Made by a program: the position numbers and the translations under genes
Origin: an uncultured Lachnospiraceae bacterium
GTDB lineage: Bacteria; Bacillota; Clostridia; Lachnospirales; Lachnospiraceae
Length of the DNA stretch: 64,000 bases
Direction of reading: 5' to 3'
Assembly (NCBI GenBank): GCA_910579505.1
Contig: CAJTTZ010000011.1
Coordinates: forward strand, 5,482-69,481
Shown: positions 1 to 11,224 of the stretch, piece by piece
How positions within the stretch are numbered: position 1 is the first letter of the stretch
Layout of the letters: each line of letters starts with the position of its first letter
Notes under the pieces: generated by a model
Database searches by the model: none
What the model was told of the DNA's origin: nothing
The model's input: only the letters and a program-made list of their open reading frames with translations

Positions 1-669
1 TCGGTCTTTCATATAGAATGTGGGCGTTGGGATTTGCTCATTTTTCAGATATACGGCGATCTGGTTTCGGTTCTTCCCGTTCAGAAACAGGCGGAAAATC
101 AAGCGGACAACTTTGGCTGCTTCTTCATCAATTATCCAAAAATCTTTGTTGTCGGGGTCTTTGACATATCCGTAGGGGGCTTCGGTTGCGATTGGCTTGC
201 CGCTCGTCCCCTTTGTGCGGATACCCGTTTTTACTTTCTTGCTGATGTCGCGGGCGTACCACTCTGACATGATATTGATAAAGGGGGCAAACTCCAACGT
301 GTCGGGCTTTTCGCTGTCTATCCCGTTGTTTACCGCGATAAAGCGCACGTTGTTTCTGCGGAAAATCTCCATAGCGTTTCCCACTTGGAGATAGTCGCGC
401 CCCCAGCGGGTCATGTCTTTCATAATGCACACGCCGATTTTGCCGTTTTCCACGTCCTCAATCATGCGGGAGTAGGCAGAACGGTCAAAAAATCTGCCGC
501 TTTCGTCATCGTCAATGTAGTGCCGGATATTGGTTAATTTTAGCTGTCTGGCATAGCTTTCCAGAAATTTCTTCTGGTTCTGTATGGAGTTGCTTTCGCC
601 GCCGTCCCTGTCCTCGTCCCCCACGGATAGGCGGGAGTAAAGGGCTGTGATTTTGCTGTAATCATTCAT
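1..669 (-). CDS. large serine recombinase, N-terminal 223 codons (gene continues beyond window start)
   Basis: Absent from the ORF track because it runs off the window. The reverse complement of 1-669 is one open frame from ATG at 669-667 with AGGAGGG 8 nt upstream. It reads MNDYSKITALYSRLSVGDEDRDGGESNSIQNQKKFLESYA...CIMKDMTRWGRDYLQVGN...FIAVNNGIDS...APYGYVKDP. The resolvase-type catalytic Ser context (YSRLS) is typical of ICE/transposon large serine recombinases. Confidence 0.85.
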   Translation of the reverse strand, partial: MNDYSKITALYSRLSVGDEDRDGGESNSIQNQKKFLESYARQLKLTNIRHYIDDDESGRFFDRSAYSRMIEDVENGKIGVCIMKDMTRWGRDYLQVGNAMEIFRRNNVRFIAVNNGIDSEKPDTLEFAPFINIMSEWYARDISKKVKTGIRTKGTSGKPIATEAPYGYVKDPDNKDFWIIDEEAAKVVRLIFRLFLNGKNRNQIAVYLKNEQIPTPTFYMKDR

Positions 670-714
670 GTGCATACCCTCCTGCGTCAATATAGGTGTT
701 GCTTACAGTTAAGA

Positions 715-1020
715 TTATGCACCCCACCTTGCAGAGCCGTACTCAACGCCCTTGCGGTACTTCTTGGCGTTCTTGCCTTTCATGTAGACGGCGATCCGCA
801 GGATAACCGCCCCGGCAACGCCTATCATAAAATCCTGTCCGTTAAGGCTTGGCAGGGGGCTTTCAAAGGCGGCGGTCACGCCCTCCATGATGTGTAAGAG
901 CTTCCCGGAGAGGTCAGCCCCCGGAGAGAGCCGGAACGCTTCGCCTGCTTTCATAAAGAGCCATACAAAGAGCAGGTACGGCGCATTGAGGATAAGCAGC
1001 TTTTTGATGTTTGGTTTCAT
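715..1020 (-). pseudogene. N-terminal 101-codon fragment of a VirD4/TraG-type conjugative coupling protein
   Basis: MKPNIKKLLILNAPYLLFVW...KNAKKYRKGVEYGSARWGA* has two N-terminal TM segments and ends right after the conserved GSARWG motif. Intact homologs run to about 600 aa. The stop lies only 46 nt from the recombinase start. Confidence 0.7.
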
Positions 1021-1493
1021 CTTTCCCGCCCCCTGTCCTTGTTTTTCTCTTTCTGCCTGCTTTGGTTCATCTGCTTTGCCTTTTCCCGGAAAGCGGCTAA
1101 CATTTTGCGTATGGACGGCTTTTTCTCTTTGCTTAACTGCTTGGCGGCAAACTCCTTAAATGCTTCCGTCATAACGTCCACGTCCCGCCCCTTGAAAAAG
1201 ACAAGATACCGGGGCGGTTCTTCGCCCTTCACTTTCTTTAGGCTGTAATCAAGCCCGTATTTCTTGGCAATGGGTTCAAATGCCTTTATGTTAGCGTCTG
1301 TAATTTCCATACTGGAAACGCCCGTGTTCTGCTTCATAAGGTGCTTTAGGGTCTGCTTGCCCTTGTATATCTTTGGTGCTTTGTTCTTCTTAGCGGATAA
1401 CATTTTTCTGATTGCCTTTTGTAAGACTTCGGCGGTCAGCTTCGCCGTCTTGATTGACAATGCAACGGTCTTTTCGTTGATCTGTTCCTGCAT
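1017..1493 (-). CDS. PcfB-like (DUF3801) conjugation-associated protein
   Basis: 158 aa. The opening MQEQINEKTVALSIKTAKLTAEVLQKA..., the basic C-terminus and the position directly upstream of the coupling protein are typical of ICEs. Confidence 0.7.
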   Translation of the reverse strand: MQEQINEKTVALSIKTAKLTAEVLQKAIRKMLSAKKNKAPKIYKGKQTLKHLMKQNTGVSSMEITDANIKAFEPIAKKYGLDYSLKKVKGEEPPRYLVFFKGRDVDVMTEAFKEFAAKQLSKEKKPSIRKMLAAFREKAKQMNQSRQKEKNKDRGRER

Positions 1494-1540
1494 GGGCTGT
1501 CATTCCTCCTTTCTTGGGGTAGTGCAGGGCAGCCGCCCGG

Positions 1541-1768
1541 TTATCTGTTATGTACCCGCACCCGCAAGCCGTCCAGTACGTCCGTCTTGATACCCACAAG
1601 ATACCATTCCTGCCCGGTACTCATTTCAATGCGTGTCGGCTTCCATTTCCCGCCTGCGAATACGTCAAAACATTCGCCGCAATGCAAGCCGCCCTTGTAG
1701 TCGTCCAGTCCAAAGCGAATGTCATAACGTCCGCTTTCTTTGTCATAAATCAAAGCTCCCTGTTTCAT
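1541..1768 (-). CDS. DUF5348-like small ICE protein
   Basis: 75 aa with GGLHCGECFDVF...WYLVG...GLRVRV. It overlaps the stop of the upstream gene by 4 nt. Confidence 0.6.
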   Translation of the reverse strand: MKQGALIYDKESGRYDIRFGLDDYKGGLHCGECFDVFAGGKWKPTRIEMSTGQEWYLVGIKTDVLDGLRVRVHNR

Positions 1769-2715
1769 AAGCTGTCGTCCTCCTGTTCCTGCGATAAAAA
1801 TACGCCCTGTGCCATATCGTGAGCGACAAGGGCGGTATAATAGCTGTCAATGGTGTTTGGTGCGTTAAAAAGAACCGCAAGCAGATACTTCTTGATGTTG
1901 CGTATCTTGGTGGTGTTTTGGTGCATACAGTCAATCACAAACTGGATATGGCTGCTGTTTATTTTCATAAACTTAGACTTCACAAGCTCTGCGGGGTAGT
2001 CGTCCCCGGCAATGCGTATCACTTTGCGGCGGGTGCAGACGGTTTCAAGCATGAGCGAAACAATCTCGTCAAGCATACCTTTGTCAATGCGGCTGTCCTG
2101 TATCAGATAGCGGTATTCGATATTGTCCTTTATGACTTCCTCATAAGCCCGTACTGCGTCCATGTTGGTCTGTCCGTTTCCTTTCCGTTCCTGCGGCGTA
2201 GCCGTTCCCTCTGTTAAGGGAGTGGAAAGGATAGGAATGGAATGGGTATTTAATAAATCCGTATTTGATAATTCTGTATTTAATAGTTCTTTATTTAATT
2301 GCGTTGGATTTTCCTGCATAGGGTTTTCCAATGTTGGATTTTCCGATATAGGCTTATCCAGTGTTGGATTTTCCAATGTAGGCTTGGGCGGCACTGGAAA
2401 TTCATGTATCACATAATCAGCCGCCCCCAACTGTCCTTTTTCGTTCCGTACCCTTGTGCGGGTCACATATCCCGCCCGTTCCAGTTCCCGTATGGCTTCC
2501 CGGATAGCGTCTATGCCCTCACGGTTGATTTGGGAAAGTCCCTTTAGGGTGTAGTCCCATTCTTCGGGCAGGGAAAGCATTTGTGAAAGCAGCCCCTTTG
2601 ATTTTAGGGATAAGTCAGTATTGCGTAGGTGGTGGTTTGACATAACGGTGTAGTCCCTGCTTTTTTCCACTCGGAATACTGCCACGTTATCAGCTCCTTT
2701 CATTTGCCCGGACAA
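1765..2715 (-). CDS. ICE replication-initiator-like winged-helix protein (RepA_N/DnaD-like N-terminus) with central peptide repeats
   Basis: 316 aa. The N-terminus reads FRVEKSRDYTVMSNHHLRNTDLSLKSKGLLSQMLSLPEEWDYTLKGLSQINREGIDAIREAIRELERAGYV. The central region carries ENPT/LLNT repeats. Confidence 0.7.
   Translation of the reverse strand: MSGQMKGADNVAVFRVEKSRDYTVMSNHHLRNTDLSLKSKGLLSQMLSLPEEWDYTLKGLSQINREGIDAIREAIRELERAGYVTRTRVRNEKGQLGAADYVIHEFPVPPKPTLENPTLDKPISENPTLENPMQENPTQLNKELLNTELSNTDLLNTHSIPILSTPLTEGTATPQERKGNGQTNMDAVRAYEEVIKDNIEYRYLIQDSRIDKGMLDEIVSLMLETVCTRRKVIRIAGDDYPAELVKSKFMKINSSHIQFVIDCMHQNTTKIRNIKKYLLAVLFNAPNTIDSYYTALVAHDMAQGVFLSQEQEDDSL
2246..2390. repeat. tandem repeats inside the initiator-like gene: 4 x 15 bp (2246-2305) then 3 x 30 bp (2301-2390)
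   Basis: The 15-bp units are gtatttaataaatcc / gtatttgataattct / gtatttaatagttct / ttatttaattgcgtt. A perfect 12-mer gttggattttcc occurs at 2303-2314, 2333-2344 and 2363-2374, an exact 30-bp period. Confidence 0.9.
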
Positions 2716-2834
2716 TGAAAAACGCCCGTTCCTGTGTGGAATGGACGTTTACCATGTGATTATAGGGCTTTAAGTTTAGTTTTCGTGTTTCAAAAAAGTC
2801 TTGATTTATGCGGTGTTGCGGTGGTTGTCTATAA

Positions 2835-3644
2835 ATACTTGCCCCGAACGGCGCGGGCAAGACGACGGTTATGAAAATGATTATGAATCTCTGGAAACCG
2901 ACCATGGGTTCCATCGAACTCTTCGGAAAGCCGCTTACGCCAAAGTCGTACGAGGTGTTGCGGCGGGTAGGCAGTATCATCGAATTTCCCACATTTTACG
3001 AGCATATGACAGGCTATGAAAATCTGCGGATACACTGTGAGTACATGGGCTTTTATCAGCACGGCAGCGTGGATAAAGCTTTGGAAATGCTTGATCTGGC
3101 GGAAGCGGCAAAGACGCCCGTCAGGAATTATTCCCTTGGTATGAAGGAGCGCCTGGGAATCGCAAGGGCAATATTATGCAAACCAGAACTGCTGATTCTC
3201 GACGAGCCGACCAACGGGCTTGACCCGGCAGGCATGAAACAGATACGCGAACTTTTGCGGATGCTCAGTGCAGAGCAGGGAACGACGATTGTGGTGTCTT
3301 CCCACATCCTCCCGGAGATCGAGAGCATTGCGGATACCATCGGTATCATTCACCGGGGCAGGGTGAAAAAGGAAATCGGCCTGAAAGAAATTGAGGAGAT
3401 GAGCCTTGCCTACATTGAACTGACGGTGGAGAACCCGGAGAGGGCGGCTTATGTGCTTGCCGATAAGCTGGGACTTGCCAATTTTAAGGTGATCGACGAC
3501 GGATTCATTCGTATTTATGACGAAGGTGTCACAACTGAGGAGATTGTGAAAGCGTTTGCCTCAAATGAGGTGGCTGTTACTTCGCTTGGGAGAAAGGCGG
3601 AGACGCTGGAAGACTATTTCCTGAAACTGACTGCAGGGCGATAG
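2835..3644 (+). pseudogene. ABC transporter ATP-binding protein (ABC-2 / bacitracin-lantibiotic-protection type), 5'-truncated
   Basis: The Walker A motif (APNGAGKTT, 2841-2867) lies upstream of the first ATG (2871) and only 2 codons after an in-frame TAA (2832-2834). The roughly 30-40 N-terminal codons expected before Walker A are missing. The rest is intact (LSGGMK-like YSLGMKERL, Walker B LLILDEPTNGLD, H-loop SSHIL). Confidence 0.75.
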
Positions 3645-3661
3645 AAAGGAAGGAGGAAACG

Positions 3662-4351
3662 ATGTTAAAACTTATCAGATTAGAGTGGAAGAAAAATAAT
3701 ATCTTAAAATATATTCGGAATGCGGCGATTACGACGGCGGTACTTCTCGCATTCCTGCTGATGGCGGCTGGGGAGCTGGAGACGGTGGAGACAGTGCAGG
3801 CATACGGGAAAAGTATGCTGGGCGCTTCCGTGGGAATGTTTGTCCATGTAGCGTACATTATTTTTACGGGGGTGATGATCGCGGCGTTTATCGTGGGCGC
3901 CTATGAGAAAAAGACGATCCACCTGATGTTTTCTTATCCGATCAAACGCAGCAAGATTATTTTTTCAAAAATCGGCGCGGTGTGGCTGTTTAACTTTGCG
4001 GCGATGGTGGTCAGCAAGGCTGTGATTTATCTTGTGCTGACTGCGGCAAAGTCCTTCGTGGGCATATCCGCCGCAGGTCTTTCGGTCGGGGAATCTTCGT
4101 TCTGGCTGGAAGCAGTTCTCTCCTCGGCGGCTATGACCAGCATCAGCTTTATTGCGCTGCCTGTAGGTCTTAAAATGAAGTCGTCCAAGGCGGCGATTGT
4201 GGCGTCAGTTGTCATCGTCTGCTTTACGCAGGGCGGGATCGGCCAGGCGACTCTGGCAAATAATATGGGGTTTTATGCGGTTTTGTGTGTGGTGGCAGTC
4301 GTGTCCGTCTGGCTGTCGGTCTGGCGGGTGGAGACGAGGGACGTGATGTGA
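3662..4351 (+). CDS. ABC-2 type transporter permease
   Basis: 229 aa with about 6 hydrophobic segments. There is a strong RBS (aaggaggaaacgATG), and the gene starts 17 nt after the ATPase stop. Confidence 0.75.
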   Translation: MLKLIRLEWKKNNILKYIRNAAITTAVLLAFLLMAAGELETVETVQAYGKSMLGASVGMFVHVAYIIFTGVMIAAFIVGAYEKKTIHLMFSYPIKRSKIIFSKIGAVWLFNFAAMVVSKAVIYLVLTAAKSFVGISAAGLSVGESSFWLEAVLSSAAMTSISFIALPVGLKMKSSKAAIVASVVIVCFTQGGIGQATLANNMGFYAVLCVVAVVSVWLSVWRVETRDVM

Positions 4352-4430
4352 GACAGGTCCTGGCGCTTCGGGACCCAAAAAGGAGGGGGCGGAGGCGGTT
4401 TCCTTTTTTTACAAAATGCGATATAATAGA

Positions 4431-4476
4431 CGCAAGCTCAGCAGCTTGCGTCGCAAGAATTACTACGTAATTCTTG
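4431..4476. repeat. two adjacent perfect hairpins (intergenic repeat family member)
   Basis: The hairpins are cgcaagct-cagc-agcttgcg (4431-4450) and caagaattac-tac-gtaattcttg (4454-4476). The ctcagcag core recurs at 19073 and 20291. Confidence 0.8.
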
Positions 4477-4487
4477 TTGTCATCGCC

Positions 4488-4729
4488 ATGGTTTACTGCT
4501 TCTGGGATTATGATATTATAGCCGCAGAGGAAAAGGAAGCGGCGTACACGAGGTTGCGGTAGAACTGACAGGAGTGTCAAAAAATAGAGACGGGAAAGTG
4601 TCCTGTCTTGCTCTCAGTGATTTCTTTGAGCAGATGGCGGATGATTATGGGATGAAATTGGATCGGGCAAGGGCAAAATACAATTATCGGGACAGGAAAG
4701 AAACCTTCCGGGTTTGCGCGGGCTTGTGA
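4488..4729 (+). pseudogene. decayed 3' fragment of a paralog of the 404-aa gene at 6533-7747
   Basis: The frame-2 segment 4535-4729 reads GSGVHEVAVELTGVSKNRDGKVSCLALSDFFEQMADDYGMKLDRARAKYNYRDRKETFRVCAGL*. It aligns colinearly with KSGVHEVEIDLPGLSKKENGKTDCADISAYFEKRADEYGMKFAQARKKYDYALTKQIYWECAGL of the downstream gene, with about 32/64 identical by hand. An in-frame stop sits at 4511, and a possible frameshifted extension (MVYCFWDYDII) reaches back to about 4488. Confidence 0.7.
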
Positions 4730-4748
4730 GGAAAGGTGTGACGTTGAA

Positions 4749-6536
4749 ATGGAAAGTTATAATTTTAAGGTGGATTTAAAGGGAATCATCAGACTTCTCA
4801 GCGACAATCTGTACTCCAGCGACCATGTGTTTCTGCGGGAGCTTCTGCAGAACGCGGTGGACGCCATCGCAGCCAGAAAAAAGTCAGATGCGGAATTTAA
4901 GGAGAGCAGGATTACGGTGACATACCGCCGGAATAAAAGCGGGGCGCAGCTTACGTTTGCGGATAACGGCATCGGGCTCAACCAGGAGGAGATTCATACG
5001 TTTCTTTCTGTGATCGGACAATCCTCAAAGCGCAGCGACACGGTGCGGAACAGCTTTATCGGACAGTTTGGAATCGGTCTGCTGTCCTGCTTTCTTGTGA
5101 CGAATGAGATTAAAGTAATCACCCGCTCCGCTGCGGAGGAGAAGGGATATCAGTGGGTTGGAAAAAGCGACGGCTCTTATGTGGTCACGGAAGTGAAAAA
5201 GAAGGTGGAAGCGGGGACGCAGATCCATATCAAACTGACGGGAAGCAAGGCGGATACTTTTTCCGAGAGGGAGATCGTCAATGATCTTTCGGAATATGGA
5301 TTTCTGATCACGACCCCGGTTTATTTTGACGGCGAAGAGCAGAAAAAGATAGTCAACAGCAATTTTATTCCATGGCGGCAGCCGTTTTCCATGGCTGACG
5401 ATATTATGAATTTCGGGGAAGAGATTTTTGGGGAAACCTTTTTTGATGTAGTGCCCCTGATCGGGGATGACATCAGGGGGTACGCCTATATTTCCACGCG
5501 GCAGACGAATGCAGGCACAACGGTCAGGCACAAGATTTTTCTGAAAAATATGTTTGTGACGGAGGACGGAAAGGATCTGATTCCAAGGTGGGCGTTTTTT
5601 ACAAAATGTATCGTCAATCTGGAGAATGTGACACCCACCGCGTCCAGAGAAGGGTTTACAAAAGACGGTAAGCTGATGAGGGCGAGAAGTCAGATCGAAA
5701 AGTGTATTTTTGATTATTTCATTTCCCTGTCCCAGGTAGACGTCAGAAAATTGAAACAGATTACCAGAATTCATAACGTGGCTATAAAATCGCTGGTAGT
5801 GGAAAACGAGCAGATTTTCAAACTCTTTTTCCCGTTTTTGACGTTTCCGACCAATCAGGGGGAGCTGACGGGCTTCCAGATCGTGGACGCATCGAAAAAG
5901 GTTCCCGTTCATTATTGCGCGGATGTGGATGATTTCAGAAGGATATGTCCGCTGTTGGAGGGGACGGGCAGTCTGCTCGTAAACGGCGGCTACATCTATG
6001 ACACCAGTATTTTACAAAAGCTTCCCCAATATTATAAAAATGTCAAAGTGGCGGCGTTTGAGGACCGTTCTTACGATAAGCTGCTGGCGGAGCCTTCCGG
6101 GGAAACCAGGAGAGAACTGGAAACTTTCCTGATTTATGCGGAAAATGCGCTGCGGCCTTATCACTGCAGTGTCTCCTTAAAAAGCTTTTCCCCCGGCGCA
6201 TTGCAGGCGCTGTATATCCCCGGGGAAGATTCCTTTTTTGCAGAGACAATGGACGAAAGCACCCTGTCAGGGTTTTTTGAAGGCTTTGATTTTGGGGAAA
6301 CGCAGGAAACAGACGGCGGCAACCGGCTTTATTTAAACGGCAATAACAGCTTCATCAGAGGCCTTGGGCGGATTCAGAATGAGGAGGCTGCCGGAACGAT
6401 TGCGCAGGTAATATACATACAGGCGCTGCTTGCCGGGCGCTATACACTGGACGCAAAGAAAATGGAGCTGATGAACAAAAGCTTACAGAAACTTATGGAA
6501 TATGCTATTATGGGCGGCAGTGATGGGGGAGAGTGA
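4749..6536 (+). CDS. HSP90-family (HtpG-paralog) GHKL ATPase
   Basis: 595 aa. The Bergerat-fold motifs appear in HSP90 order: E31-LLQN-AVDA (4839-4865), D72-NGIGL (4962-), G105-QFGIGLLS (5061-). The RBS is aggaaagg. Confidence 0.85.
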   Translation: MESYNFKVDLKGIIRLLSDNLYSSDHVFLRELLQNAVDAIAARKKSDAEFKESRITVTYRRNKSGAQLTFADNGIGLNQEEIHTFLSVIGQSSKRSDTVRNSFIGQFGIGLLSCFLVTNEIKVITRSAAEEKGYQWVGKSDGSYVVTEVKKKVEAGTQIHIKLTGSKADTFSEREIVNDLSEYGFLITTPVYFDGEEQKKIVNSNFIPWRQPFSMADDIMNFGEEIFGETFFDVVPLIGDDIRGYAYISTRQTNAGTTVRHKIFLKNMFVTEDGKDLIPRWAFFTKCIVNLENVTPTASREGFTKDGKLMRARSQIEKCIFDYFISLSQVDVRKLKQITRIHNVAIKSLVVENEQIFKLFFPFLTFPTNQGELTGFQIVDASKKVPVHYCADVDDFRRICPLLEGTGSLLVNGGYIYDTSILQKLPQYYKNVKVAAFEDRSYDKLLAEPSGETRRELETFLIYAENALRPYHCSVSLKSFSPGALQALYIPGEDSFFAETMDESTLSGFFEGFDFGETQETDGGNRLYLNGNNSFIRGLGRIQNEEAAGTIAQVIYIQALLAGRYTLDAKKMELMNKSLQKLMEYAIMGGSDGGE

Positions 6537-7747
6537 TTGCTATGATGTTTGAGCCGGGTATAGTTGACGGAACCAGAAACAGTGAGCTGGCGGACGCAGT
6601 CAGAAGTGCACAGAAACTGACGGACGGAGCGTATGAATTATATAATCGGAATGAAGAGACGCTTATGATGCTGCTTCAGAAAATTCTGCGGCTGTCCAAG
6701 GAAGAAAAGGAGTGGCACATCTATTTTTATGCTTTGTATGAACTCATGTACGAGGCCGTGCGGTGCGGAAATTATCCGGCGGTGATCAAATATGCGGAAG
6801 TGTACTACAAAGACAGCGATTTGTATATGGATAGGGAACTGCCCAATTATCCGCGGACAAACATGGCTTACATGAATACATGGACGTATGAGCAGATTTT
6901 TTCCGCCTATTATCAGTATCATCAGATCAATGACGCCAAAATGGACGTTTTTATGAAAAGGTTTGAGGAGGCCGCGCTAAAATACGGCAGGACGGCCGGC
7001 TATTATGAAAGTGAGATGGATCTTGGCATTTTATACCGGGACCCGGAGCTGTTGGAAAAGGGCAAAAAAAATTTTGAAAAGTATGAGTATGAGATAAAAG
7101 GCTGCTATGTATGTCAACACAAACCGCTTTTCGGATATTATCTGTATAACGGGCAGAGGGAGACTGCGGTAGAATTTTTTGAAACGATTGTGCAAAAGAG
7201 GATTCCGAAGCAGCATCAGTGGTGCTACCAGTATTGCGAAGCGGCGGAAGCGGATGATATGTGCGCCTTTCTGCTGCAGACAGCCCTGAGGCTTTGCAGG
7301 ACGGAAGAATTTCGATACTTTTATGAGAAATACTGGCTGAAGCTGGCGGAAAAAAAGCGGGAAGGGGAATTTAAAACAGTTTACATTTTCGCGGATGCCA
7401 TAGCGGAAAAATGGGAGCAGATGAGTGAGGATTTACATGAGGCCGAGAAGGATGTGGCGGAAAGTGTAAAAAATACGACGGTAGATAATATAGAGTTAGG
7501 CCTCATGTGGTGGTGTTATTTTGCACTCTTAGATAAGAGCGGCGTGCATGAGGTGGAGATTGATCTGCCGGGGCTTTCAAAAAAAGAAAACGGGAAAACA
7601 GACTGCGCGGATATCAGTGCGTATTTTGAAAAGAGAGCGGATGAATACGGTATGAAATTTGCGCAGGCAAGGAAAAAGTATGATTATGCGCTGACGAAAC
7701 AAATATATTGGGAATGTGCCGGATTATACGGGAAACTTGATTCATAG
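6533..7747 (+). CDS. uncharacterised 404-aa helical protein, translationally coupled to the HSP90 paralog
   Basis: The GTG at 6533 overlaps the upstream TGA (6534-6536); alternative ATGs lie at 6542 and 6545. The protein is rich in Y/W/C/E/K with helical-repeat-like composition, and I recognise no catalytic motif. Confidence 0.7.
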   Translation: MIAMMFEPGIVDGTRNSELADAVRSAQKLTDGAYELYNRNEETLMMLLQKILRLSKEEKEWHIYFYALYELMYEAVRCGNYPAVIKYAEVYYKDSDLYMDRELPNYPRTNMAYMNTWTYEQIFSAYYQYHQINDAKMDVFMKRFEEAALKYGRTAGYYESEMDLGILYRDPELLEKGKKNFEKYEYEIKGCYVCQHKPLFGYYLYNGQRETAVEFFETIVQKRIPKQHQWCYQYCEAAEADDMCAFLLQTALRLCRTEEFRYFYEKYWLKLAEKKREGEFKTVYIFADAIAEKWEQMSEDLHEAEKDVAESVKNTTVDNIELGLMWWCYFALLDKSGVHEVEIDLPGLSKKENGKTDCADISAYFEKRADEYGMKFAQARKKYDYALTKQIYWECAGLYGKLDS

Positions 7748-7768
7748 AAGGAAAAAGAGAGGTCTGAC

Positions 7769-10700
7769 ATGGCGTTTGCGCACTTGCATGTCCACACGGA
7801 GTTTAGTCTTCTGGACGGTTCCAACAAAATAAAAGAGTATGTGAGATACGTGAAAGAGCTGGGGATGGACAGTGCGGCGATCACGGACCACGGCGTCATG
7901 TACGGTGTCGTTGATTTCTATAAGGCGGCGAAGGAGGCGGGGATCAATCCCGTGATCGGCTGCGAGGTCTATGTGGCGCCCCACTCCCGTTTTGACAGGG
8001 AGCTGACCGGCGGCGAGGACCGCTATTATCATCTGGTGCTTCTGGCGGAGAACAACACGGGCTATGCGAATCTGGTGAAGATTGTAAGCCGCGGCTTTAC
8101 GGAAGGGTATTACTACAGGCCCCGTGTGGATATGGAAGTATTGGAACAGTACCACGAGGGCATTATCGCGCTTTCGGCGTGTCTGGCGGGGGAGGTGCCC
8201 CGCTATATCCAGAAGGGGCTCGTGGATGAGGCCAGGAAAGTGGCACTAAAATATCAGGATATTTTCGGGAAGGACAATTACTTTCTGGAATTGCAGGATC
8301 ACGGGATTCCGGCGCAGCAGTCGGTCAATTCCGTGCTTCTTCGCATGAGCAGGGAGCTTGACATCCCGCTTGTGGCAACCAACGACGTGCACTACACTTA
8401 CGCACAGGACGCCCAGCCCCATGACGTGCTTCTCTGCCTGCAGACGGGAAAAAAGGTGGCGGACGAGGATCGGATGCGCTATGAGGGCGGGCAGTACTAC
8501 GTAAAGAGCGAGGAGGAGATGAAGGGACTTTTCCCTTACGCGTGGGAAGCCGTGGAGAACACCCAGCGGATCGCAGACCGCTGCCATGTGGAGATTGAGT
8601 TTGGCAATTACAAGGTACCTCATTATGATGCGCCGGAGGGTTACGATTCATGGAGTTACCTGAACAAGCTCTGTCAGGACGGGATGAAGGAGAGATACCC
8701 GGAAGATGACGGTACCTTGCAGGAGCGTCTGCACTATGAGCTTGACACGATCAGGAATATGGGGTTTGTCGACTATTTCCTGATTGTGTGGGACTATATC
8801 AATTTCTGTCGGGAGAATGGGATCGCCGTAGGACCGGGCAGAGGTTCGGCGGCGGGAAGCATCGTCTCCTACTGTCTGAGGATTACCAATATTGATCCGA
8901 TCAAATACAGCCTGCTCTTCGAGCGGTTCCTAAACCCTGAGCGCGTCTCCATGCCGGATATTGATGTGGATTTCTGCTTTGAGAGAAGACAGGAAGTGAT
9001 TGACTATGTGGGTCGAAAATACGGCGGCGACAGGGTCGTGCAGATCGTCACCTTCGGTACCATGGCGGCCAAGGGCGTGATACGGGATGTGGGGAGGGTG
9101 ATGGATCTGCCTTACGCCTATGTTGACCGTTTGGCGAAGATGATTCCCCTTGAGCAGAATCAGGGCGTGTCCATAGACCGCGCCCTGGAGATGAACCCGG
9201 AGTTTAAAAGCCTCTATGAGGAGGATGAGCAGGTTCACAGTCTGATTGATATGTGCAGAAGACTGGAGGGGCTGCCGAGACATACTTCCATGCACGCGGC
9301 GGGCGTGGTGATCTGCCCGGAGGCGGCGGATGAGTTTGTGCCCCTTTCCAGAGGAGCCGACGGTTCCATCACCACGCAGTTTCCGATGACTACCATCGAG
9401 GAGCTGGGACTCCTCAAAATGGATTTTCTGGGACTTCGGACACTGACGGTGATTCAGAACGCAGTGCGGCTTGTGGAGCAGAGCAAGGGCATTGTGATAG
9501 ATATAGACAATATCGACTACGACGACAAGGCGGTGCTTGCCTCCCTCGGAACGGGGCGGACGGACGGCGTGTTCCAGTTAGAAAGCGGCGGGATGAAAAG
9601 CTTCATGAAGGAGCTAAAGCCCCAGAGCCTGGAGGATGTGATCGCGGGTATTTCGCTGTACCGTCCGGGACCGATGGACTTTATTCCCAAATACATCAAG
9701 GGAAAAAACCACCCGGAGACGGTGACTTACGACTGCCCCCAGCTTGAGCCGATCCTGGCGCCCACCTACGGCTGTATCGTGTATCAGGAGCAGGTGATGC
9801 AGATCGTGCGGGAGCTCGGCGGTTACACCATGGGCAGGAGCGACCTTGTGCGCCGGGCCATGAGCAAGAAAAAGCAAAAGGTGATGGAGCAGGAGCGGAA
9901 AAATTTCACCTACGGGAATCCCGAGGAGGGGGTGCCCGGCTGTGTGGCGAACGGCATCGACGCGAAGGTGGCGGATCACATTTACGATACCATGATGGAT
10001 TTTGCCAAGTATGCCTTCAACAAGTCCCATGCGGCCTGCTATGCGGTGGTGGCATACCAGACGGCTTATATGAAGTATTATTATCCCGTGGAGTTTATGG
10101 CGGCGCTGATGACTTCTGTGATCGACAACCCGAGCAAAGTGGCGGAGTATATTATGACAAGCAGGAGCATGGGTATACAGATCCTGCCGCCGGATATCAA
10201 CGTGGGCGAGAACGGCTTTTCGGTGTCGGGCGGACAGATCCGTTATGCGCTTTCCGCCATCAAGAGCGTAGGGCGTCCCGTGATCGACGCGGTGGTCGCG
10301 GAGCGTGAGGCGAGAGGTCCTTATCTGAATCTGGGGGATTTTGTGACGCGGGTGACAGACCGCGACATGAATAAGCGCGTCATTGAACACTTCATAAAGG
10401 CGGGCGCCATGGACAGCCTGGGCGGTACGAGAAAGCAGCTTTTAAGCGTGTATCTGCAGGTGGTTGACGGCATTCAGCAGAACCGCAAGAATAACCTGGC
10501 GGGGCAGATTTCTCTCTTTGATATTGCCGGGGAGGAGGAGAAGGTGGATTACCGCGTAAGCCTTCCCGATGTAGGGGAATACTCGAAGGAGATGAAGCTG
10601 GCCTTTGAGAAGGAAGTGCTTGGTATCTACATCAGCGGGCACCCGCTGGAGGAATACCGGGAGACGTGGAAGAAGAATATTACAAACACAACGGCGGACT

Positions 10701-11224
10701 TTATGCTGGATGAGGAAACCGGGGAGACGAGGGTCGCGGACGGGGCGAAGGTGACCATCGGCGGCATGATTACGGAGAAAAAGATCAAGTATACCAAGAA
10801 TGAGAAAGTGATGGCGTTTTTGCAGGTGGAGGATCTCGTCGGTTCCGTGGAGGTCATTGTTTTTCCGAGGGATTACGAGCGGTATGGCAGTGCGGTGATG
10901 GAGGATAGCAAGGTATTTATCAGGGGCAGGGCGTCTGTGGAGGAGGATAAGGATGCGAAGTTAGTCTGTGAACAGATTACAACCTTTGAGCAGATGCCGA
11001 AAAAGCTCTGGATTAAATTCCCCACGAAAGAGGCGTACGAGGAGCACAAGGGTGCGCTCTTTGACATTTTGCGGGAGGCGGAAGGAAAGGATCATGTGGT
11101 GATCTACGTGGAGAATCCAAAAGCCATGAATCCGCTGCCGGCCAATTGGAACGTGTCGGCGCAGGCGCCGCTGATTGAGAAACTGGAGGCGGTGTTTGGG
11201 GAGGGGAATGTAAAGGTAGTGTAA
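7769..11224 (+). CDS. dnaE: DNA polymerase III alpha subunit (DnaE type)
   Basis: 1151 aa with a PHP domain start (FAHLHVHTEFSLLDGS), the palm/fingers motif PDIDVDF, and a C-terminal OB fold. Confidence 0.95.
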   Translation: MAFAHLHVHTEFSLLDGSNKIKEYVRYVKELGMDSAAITDHGVMYGVVDFYKAAKEAGINPVIGCEVYVAPHSRFDRELTGGEDRYYHLVLLAENNTGYANLVKIVSRGFTEGYYYRPRVDMEVLEQYHEGIIALSACLAGEVPRYIQKGLVDEARKVALKYQDIFGKDNYFLELQDHGIPAQQSVNSVLLRMSRELDIPLVATNDVHYTYAQDAQPHDVLLCLQTGKKVADEDRMRYEGGQYYVKSEEEMKGLFPYAWEAVENTQRIADRCHVEIEFGNYKVPHYDAPEGYDSWSYLNKLCQDGMKERYPEDDGTLQERLHYELDTIRNMGFVDYFLIVWDYINFCRENGIAVGPGRGSAAGSIVSYCLRITNIDPIKYSLLFERFLNPERVSMPDIDVDFCFERRQEVIDYVGRKYGGDRVVQIVTFGTMAAKGVIRDVGRVMDLPYAYVDRLAKMIPLEQNQGVSIDRALEMNPEFKSLYEEDEQVHSLIDMCRRLEGLPRHTSMHAAGVVICPEAADEFVPLSRGADGSITTQFPMTTIEELGLLKMDFLGLRTLTVIQNAVRLVEQSKGIVIDIDNIDYDDKAVLASLGTGRTDGVFQLESGGMKSFMKELKPQSLEDVIAGISLYRPGPMDFIPKYIKGKNHPETVTYDCPQLEPILAPTYGCIVYQEQVMQIVRELGGYTMGRSDLVRRAMSKKKQKVMEQERKNFTYGNPEEGVPGCVANGIDAKVADHIYDTMMDFAKYAFNKSHAACYAVVAYQTAYMKYYYPVEFMAALMTSVIDNPSKVAEYIMTSRSMGIQILPPDINVGENGFSVSGGQIRYALSAIKSVGRPVIDAVVAEREARGPYLNLGDFVTRVTDRDMNKRVIEHFIKAGAMDSLGGTRKQLLSVYLQVVDGIQQNRKNNLAGQISLFDIAGEEEKVDYRVSLPDVGEYSKEMKLAFEKEVLGIYISGHPLEEYRETWKKNITNTTADFMLDEETGETRVADGAKVTIGGMITEKKIKYTKNEKVMAFLQVEDLVGSVEVIVFPRDYERYGSAVMEDSKVFIRGRASVEEDKDAKLVCEQITTFEQMPKKLWIKFPTKEAYEEHKGALFDILREAEGKDHVVIYVENPKAMNPLPANWNVSAQAPLIEKLEAVFGEGNVKVV

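Follow-up and report, generated by a model that had tools for sequence, protein, structure and literature searches.

The 64,000-nucleotide (nt) stretch analyzed here (the window; contig CAJTTZ010000011.1, positions 5,482 to 69,481) comes from an uncultured Lachnospiraceae bacterium and contains a gene for an Hsp90 paralog (4749-6536), followed directly by a gene for a second protein, termed the partner (6542-7747). This locus is one operon of an ancient, widespread two-component module, which is comprised of a non-canonical Hsp90 and one to three cognate proteins that resemble tetratricopeptide repeat (TPR) proteins. A partner gene was seen beside this Hsp90 in all three phyla sampled, which provides a concrete, testable hypothesis for a neglected Hsp90 lineage and places a new protein family in a genetically tractable pathogen. 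The partner could prove to be the first protein dedicated to a bacterial Hsp90. All feature coordinates given for the operon and its neighboring genes are on the forward (+) strand.

The Hsp90 paralog is 595 amino acids (aa) in length. The initial annotation had described its open reading frame (ORF) as encoding GHKL/Bergerat motifs in HSP90 order, and these motifs are present: E31, N35, D72-x-G-x-G (D72/G74/G76), and G105-Q-F-G-x-G (G105-G110) are invariant among 62 homologues. Likewise invariant in this set are R300 and E301 of the middle-domain catalytic-loop motif TASRE, which aligns with LSRE of TRAP1. The protein belongs to the NCBIfam family NF010683 (PRK14083), "HSP90 family protein," with a score of 537.8 bits against a cut-off of 455 and residues 3-587 placed on profile positions 5-596 of 604. 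It did not pass the canonical HtpG model NF003555 (174.9 bits against a cut-off of 371) and is not the product of an ordinary htpG; a canonical htpG was not found within the 64-kb window. An AlphaFold2 (AF2) model with a mean predicted local distance difference test (pLDDT) score of 81.7 matched full-length Hsp90, HtpG, and TRAP1 chains in Foldseek (E ~1e-33, template-modeling score [TM] ~0.65, ~650 columns); its identity to solved Hsp90 structures is ~18%. No solved structure belonging to the NF010683 family was found. The N-terminus had been described as unlike that of canonical HtpG. This holds for its sequence, which has diverged, but not for its architecture, which from residue 2 onward runs colinear with HtpG and TRAP1. 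The full-length fold match, taken with the failed HtpG model, identifies the predicted product as a complete three-domain (N-M-C) yet non-canonical Hsp90.

Chen et al. (2006; PMC1525184) described divergent Hsp90 lineages in bacteria, namely HtpG Groups B and C (also hsp90B/C), and reported Group C copies in Firmicutes, Actinobacteria, and Spirochaetes. Judging from that taxon distribution, the family found in the window is probably the Group C or hsp90C lineage. The existence of divergent Hsp90 paralogs in bacteria has been recognized since 2004-2006, but functional work set them aside (PMC3708813); the co-evolution study of Press et al. (2013) explicitly left them out (PMC3708813). NF010683 itself is named in NCBIfam and is functionally uncharacterized, and the partner family has no name.

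The partner gene probably begins at ATG 6542, which gives a product of 401 aa. This start codon lies 5 nt past the HSP90 stop codon and ~10 nt past GGGGGAGAG (6524-6532), a putative Shine-Dalgarno sequence read within the last HSP90 codons, and it is the start chosen by gene callers on near-identical contigs. The GTG at 6533, which would give a 404-aa product overlapping the HSP90 gene, had been named earlier as the first possible start; the Shine-Dalgarno spacing and the gene calls speak for ATG 6542 instead. The two genes are tightly coupled in the window, probably without overlap. The product, which belongs to the B type defined below, is modeled with high confidence (mean pLDDT 95.3) as an all-α solenoid containing a small β-hairpin near residues 340-358. 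It carries a Cys motif, C191-x2-C194-x-H196 ... C231-x3-C235 (404-aa numbering), and in an alignment of partner homologues C191, C194, and C235 are invariant and H196 and C231 nearly so.

Structure searches with the partner model (Foldseek; PDB and BFVD) returned generic TPR, pentatricopeptide repeat (PPR), and SNAP-like folds only, among them designed PPRs, LGN, APC6, MalT domain III, and Rap, and even the best of these matches were weak (E ≥ 2e-3, TM ≤ 0.47; none at E ≤ 0.001). A specific assignment to the Rap/RRNPP or MalT proteins was rejected for this reason. These TPR sensors are likewise all-helical TPR-like solenoids of similar size, and Rap phi105 reached a TM of 0.47; however, their E values were 0.04 to 0.1, designed PPR/TPR proteins scored better, and the partner has the Cys motif. 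Neither a Phr-like small gene nor a response-regulator context was seen near the partner. At the sequence level, the partner matched no family in Pfam or NCBIfam, including the Pfam TPR models, and had one match in PADLOC, at E 0.036; a sequence-profile search found no relative in the PDB. The Listeria protein lmo0941, introduced below, lies just above the TPR_8 threshold (26.1 vs 25.7 bits). As modeled, the partner is a TPR-like protein-binding scaffold of a new family.

Homologues of the partner formed 85 clusters at 40-100% identity, of which those with a named source were all from Lachnospiraceae-type metagenome-assembled genomes and were annotated as hypothetical. An exhaustive partner-profile search of 1.84 billion representatives gave only 77 matches. 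The Lachnospiraceae form is a narrow, divergent branch, and its link to the form found in Listeria, Clostridium, and Streptomyces required profile-profile comparison.

To survey the linkage of the two genes, an HSP90 profile was run against a single genome from each species, and the resulting 80 loci were then searched with a hidden Markov model (HMM) of the partner. In 60 of 64 Lachnospiraceae-type loci, a full-length partner gene directly adjoined the HSP90 gene in the same orientation. The four unpaired loci consist of three contigs that end within 0.5 kb of HSP90 and one deletion fusion, L069, in which HSP90 residues 1-394 are joined in one ORF (6965-8584) to partner residues ~265-395; this fusion is probably a dead allele that arose by deletion. 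Apart from it, all fully readable loci keep at least one partner, and look-ups that started from partner proteins always found an adjoining HSP90 gene. Most loci have one downstream partner, eight genome loci have two, and one metagenomic contig has three, while in three loci a partner lies upstream of HSP90. In ~23 relatives, the partner begins at the HSP90 stop codon with a 4-nt overlap. The expectation that the 404-aa family would be syntenic with the HSP90 paralog was thus borne out wherever the contig permits the question to be asked, and versions with two partners do exist.

The same arrangement extends well beyond the Lachnospiraceae. Among distant Clostridia, which included Ruminococcaceae, Clostridium tetanomorphum, C. 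lundense, and C. mobile, a partner ORF of 365-385 aa lies immediately 3' of an HSP90 gene whose product is 33-37% identical to that of the window in 14 of 14 loci; some of these loci have a 700-aa form of the partner, found in Ruminococcaceae, or two copies. In Listeria monocytogenes, the HSP90 gene lmo0942 is followed by two tandem genes for hypothetical proteins (lmo0941 and lmo0940; 324 and 320 aa) and then by a SMI1/KNR4 gene (locus numbers were deduced from an annotated "lmo0937 family" gene). In a 2.9-Mb Listeria replicon, the NF010683 gene is the sole Hsp90 homologue found (one place at E ≤ 1e-10). The partner of Streptomyces globosus has 1033 aa and contains additional TPRs, HSP90 stop and partner start overlap in Paenibacillus, the two genes overlap by 4 nt in Leptospira kirschneri, and a further 1.4-Mb contig carries the same HSP90-partner arrangement. 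Partner size across lineages is mostly ~320-420 aa, and the distant partners are annotated in their sources as "hypothetical" or "tetratricopeptide repeat protein."

Several lines of evidence connect these distant pairs with that of the window. The HSP90s of non-Lachnospiraceae lineages with the same neighbor all pass NF010683, at 617-825 bits, and their partners share the motifs W-x-[YF]-K-[WY], D-C-x-A-C, C-x-E-x-P, and F-D-x-R-N-G-N. Comparison of the distant with the Lachnospiraceae partners by hhalign gave a probability of 80.5% (E 1.3e-5) over 316 colinear columns, in which the CxxC motifs are aligned. One partner family thus appears to span three phyla, Bacillota, Actinomycetota, and Spirochaetota. 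Two observations belong beside this survey. At L103 of Streptomyces radiopugnans (3065-6683), the HSP90 is split over two frames and no gene is called, and a 560-aa partner is intact; the frameshift may represent either a pseudogene or a sequencing error. The SMI1/KNR4 (SUKH) gene that follows the Listeria partners is lmo0939, and a SUKH gene near the module thus recurs in two distant lineages. Phage and plasmid collections contained no credible mobile copies: the "plasmid" matches were megabase replicons or canonical htpG, and the "phage" matches were unverified fragments. One of the latter (L106; MT837560.1, "Bacteriophage sp.," UNVERIFIED) carries HSP90 together with a partner-type ORF, and this high-GC, 6.6-kb contig most likely stems from bacterial DNA present in a virome and not from a phage.

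The two components evolve at different rates. Over 72 loci, mean identity to the window was 67% for HSP90 and 43% for the best partner, and one relative has an HSP90 that is 91% but a partner that is only 41% identical. Measured in this way, the partner diverges much faster than the ATPase. The identities of the two proteins to the window are correlated across these loci (r = 0.86). In a neighbor-joining tree of partners, duplications confined to single lineages are numerous, and the upstream position arose at least twice. Within the Hsp90 paralog, residues 426-475 of the C-terminal domain, which cover the helix 451-471, are the least conserved (39-53% identity to the window across the 62 homologues), and 10 of the 52 substitutions relative to the paralog of L094, a relative described below, fall in residues 451-500. 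This cluster separates an Hsp90 that has only a B-type partner (window) from one that has only an A-type partner (L094). The variable stretch may be where the partner binds, which we regard as a hint rather than as evidence.

The history of the site itself was reconstructed by comparison with close relatives. Between the permease and dnaE genes, the window carries a relic of a second, A-type partner, HSP90, and the B-type partner. L088 and L092, whose HSP90 is 98% identical to that of the window, have a smaller relic of A, followed by HSP90 and partner B. In L094 and L105 (HSP90 91% and DnaE 96% identical to those of the window), an intact 395-aa partner A lies between the permease gene and HSP90, and dnaE follows directly after HSP90, with no partner B. 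L104 (HSP90 88% identical), a 6.8-kb contig without flanking genes, has partner A, inserted ORFs, HSP90, and partner B; its A-type partner is 66% identical to that of L094, and its B-type partner, which overlaps HSP90 by 4 nt, is 71.5% identical to that of the window. The A and B partners are ~41-47% identical to each other. The initial annotation had proposed a partner-HSP90-partner layout for this site, and such a layout exists in L104. Two ORFs, one encoding a 517-aa multi-pass membrane protein and the other 122 aa, lie between the A-type partner and HSP90 of L104 (1509-3650). After them comes a 66-aa ORF, also ahead of HSP90, the middle of which resembles the N-terminus of an A-type partner; it would be a second relic.

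The relic in the window (4535-4729) consists of the last 63 codons and the stop codon of the lost gene and is a stop-bounded pseudogene remnant. It aligns without gaps to residues 336-398 of partner B, with 32 of 63 positions identical (51%; E 2e-20), in agreement with the original hand alignment, which had found it colinear with the partner C-terminus and about half identical. It matches the partner HMM at positions 334-395 (75 bits). Its reading as the relic of a second partner gained further weight from the intact upstream partner at the same site in L094, with whose C-terminus it shares 54 of 63 residues (86%; E 1e-37); it is 78% identical to the upstream (A-type) partner of L104. A frameshifted extension of the relic back to ~4488, as suggested at first, was rejected: the DNA at 4434-4535 fails to align with the intact gene, and homology to that gene begins at ~4536-4538, at a deletion junction. 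This junction was defined by aligning four sequences: the window, L088, and, from L094, both the leader and the coding region of partner A. What is left of the 5' leader of the lost upstream gene (4521-4546) ends in the shared 9-nt repeat GAAGCGGCG, where a ~1-kb deletion joined it to codon 331; the promoter-like block at 4398-4433 was retained.

The deletion of A in L088 and L092 is different and is not nested with that of the window, as more of the leader is kept and only ~14 codons are left. The decay of A was thus an independent event in strains that retain B. The comparison points to A-HSP90-B as the ancestral layout in this Lachnospiraceae clade, followed by reciprocal loss. The window lineage lost A when ~1 kb between two copies of GAAGCGGCG was deleted, B was lost in a sister lineage, and a third lineage keeps both. 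This turnover of A and B at a single locus offers a natural experiment, in that either partner can be lost and at least one is kept.

The anatomy of the operon, the linkage of its genes, and the A/B history are established by these comparisons; binding and function we infer. We assign about an even chance to an interpretation in which the partner is a dedicated co-chaperone or client adaptor that binds the Hsp90 paralog, with paralogous partners giving specificity. Such a partner would bind the Hsp90 dimer, and proteins held by its solenoid would be remodeled through the ATPase cycle, for which every catalytic residue is intact. The Cys motif would bind a structural or regulatory metal, most likely Zn, and the fast divergence of paralogous partners would give them differing client specificities. 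The more demanding version, in which the partner is a true obligate co-chaperone or client adaptor, ancient across three phyla, whose fast-diversifying and interchangeable paralogs set client specificity, is advanced tentatively and falls somewhat short of an even chance. Same-strand linkage, the 5-nt coupling of the genes, the solenoid fold, partner retention, and the co-divergence of the two proteins all suggest a role of this kind. If the obligate co-chaperone interpretation is true, the module would be the first bacterial Hsp90 co-chaperone system, and it could be tested in L. monocytogenes with lmo0942, lmo0941, and lmo0940.

Other findings weigh against a co-chaperone role. The Hsp90 paralogs of the three lineages compared, the window (...MGGSDGGE), Listeria (...LRILEML), and Clostridium (...LVLEGK), have no C-terminal EEVD-type tail, and their tails are not conserved; the eukaryotic TPR-clamp mode is therefore inapplicable. 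CIRCE and CtsR heat-shock operators were not found upstream of 95 operons, which gives no indication of a classical stress-chaperone role. The metal site is predicted from the conserved Cys residues. Finally, fast partner divergence, copy-number change, and paralog swapping also fit a dedicated client or a conflict system. In the former case, which seems unlikely, the partner would be a metal-binding helical-repeat protein that needs its own Hsp90 for folding, metal loading, or assembly, and the mature partner would perform the cellular function. Strict linkage of tightly coupled genes and the invariant CxxC...C motif are what such a client would be expected to exhibit, and the large extra domains of the 1033-aa Streptomyces form and the 700-aa Ruminococcaceae forms could hold a real activity. 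However, the AF2 model is a compact, highly confident solenoid without a catalytic-looking domain, no enzyme family is matched by the partner, and several divergent paralogs beside one ATPase are better explained as interchangeable adaptors.

A conflict module, for example an anti-phage system in which the rapidly evolving TPR-like protein would detect a protein of the invader and the GHKL ATPase would relay or carry out the response, is an improbable explanation, although it would account for the much faster divergence of the partner, for its presence in one to three copies, and for the swapping of paralogs between close relatives. It would also be in keeping with the flagging of lmo0941 in Listeria by two selection tests, Tajima's D and omega, in a study that gives the function of this gene as unknown (PMC6901971), with a SUKH/SMI1-KNR4 gene close behind the module in Listeria and two of the Lachnospiraceae loci, and with a weak likeness of the N-terminal GHKL domain to TmtA and BbrUII-type proteins. 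The module nevertheless lacks effector domains of any kind (nuclease, protease, TIR, pore, or other), PADLOC (PADLOC-DB 2.0) yields no system-level match, and its housekeeping flanks are stable among relatives. The presence of middle and C-terminal domains makes its ATPase a full Hsp90 and sets it apart from the MORC- or TmtA-type proteins, and credible phage or mobile-plasmid copies are lacking from the collections searched. The notion that the genes are coincidental neighbors, a general HtpG-type chaperone gene beside an unrelated 404-aa gene, is very improbable and is contradicted by the synteny survey: adjacency is kept across three phyla while other neighbors all change, stop and start codons overlap in many loci, and one partner is always kept when the other is lost. 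As the sole Hsp90 homologue found in the 2.9-Mb Listeria replicon, the NF010683 protein may also do general chaperone work. Whichever role applies, the fast divergence of the partner raises the question of which variable target it tracks.

Several known systems provide points of comparison. E. coli HtpG has been described as a machine that works alone and for which no co-chaperone has been identified (PMC4428384). It shares its three-domain fold and its ATPase motifs with the Hsp90 paralog, and the two are colinear from residue 2 to the C-terminal domain; the paralog, in contrast, lies well below the NF003555 cut-off for HtpG of the E. coli type and is accompanied by a coupled partner gene. 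The window protein passes NF010683/PRK14083 end to end, as do the Listeria, Clostridium, and Streptomyces proteins with the same neighbor. Eukaryotic Hsp90 works with TPR co-chaperones that include Hop/Sti1, PP5, FKBP51/52, and Sgt1. The likeness to the module lies in the combination of an Hsp90 with a helical-repeat, protein-binding partner and in the availability of several alternative partners per ATPase. However, these co-chaperones have no detectable sequence relationship to the partner, for which binding is putative here, and they use a 3-TPR clamp domain and an EEVD-tailed Hsp90, whereas the partner is one continuous ~400-aa solenoid with a Cys motif. Defense GHKL ATPases (PADLOC TmtA; the BbrUII/HgiDII restriction enzymes, REase_II; MORC-like proteins) exhibit a weak likeness to the N-domain (E 1e-9 to 1e-13). 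The TmtA/BbrUII-type matches span ~120 residues (query residues 9-141) of proteins that are 660-1780 residues in length, and in place of the rest the window protein continues into the middle and C-terminal domains of an Hsp90, with no effector. The literature searched, which omits most subscription journals, covered bacterial Hsp90 co-chaperones, GHKL or Hsp90-like defense systems, and the lmo094x genes, and no description of the HSP90-partner pairing was found in it.

The genes that flank the module are common to relatives, in the order ABC-transporter ATPase, permease, module, dnaE, MCP, and pfk. The ABC-2 permease gene (3662-4351) occupies the same position upstream of the module in L088-L094 and L105. 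The downstream neighbor dnaE (7769-11224) has the same order in L088, and its product is 96% identical to that of the gene directly 3' of HSP90 in L094. The ABC-transporter ATPase gene (2871-3644) is truncated at its 5' end. Its Pfam ABC_tran match begins at profile position 28, and homology to L088, where the locus is uninterrupted, begins only at window position 2844; it lacks the Walker A region because the insertion of a conjugative element, which fills window positions 1-2843 and codes in this left flank for DUF6017 (with HTH_36), DUF5348, and DUF3801, replaced the 5' end of the gene. This insertion is specific to the window and sits 1.9 kb upstream of the module. The earlier description of the site as a variable spot is slightly overstated: partner content and the window-specific upstream insertion vary, but the flanks are conserved in relatives.

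The promoter-like block that heads the operon (4398-4433; ...TTTTTTTACAAAATGCGATATAATAG) is 92% identical to L094 positions 6712-6747 and is also present in L088 and L092, whereas the intergenic DNA around it fails to align with L094. In the L094 sister lineage, this block precedes the intact upstream partner gene, and it may represent the promoter of the operon. Between the block and the leader lies a window-specific 92-nt insert (4430-4520) with two perfect 10-bp hairpins. The initial annotation had placed the start of hairpin repeats at ~4488, which did not hold up, as the hairpins are at 4429-4452 and 4454-4476, inside this insert. The insert is not present in L088, L092, or L094, is a single copy within the window, and has at its end a sequence (GATATTATAG) that nearly duplicates the insertion site (GATATAATAG).

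Other neighbors of the module vary among the Lachnospiraceae. AAA_14/DUF4143 ATPase genes lie upstream of it in L001 (4343-5554) and L005 (1427-2722), within neighborhoods that otherwise differ, and their two products have no mutual phmmer match at E 1e-4. A DUF4015 gene directly follows the partner in 11 loci, and a SUKH_6 gene is next in L004 and L016; the observations on DUF4015 and SUKH genes refer to L004 10467-12953, L016, and L098 8870-9616.

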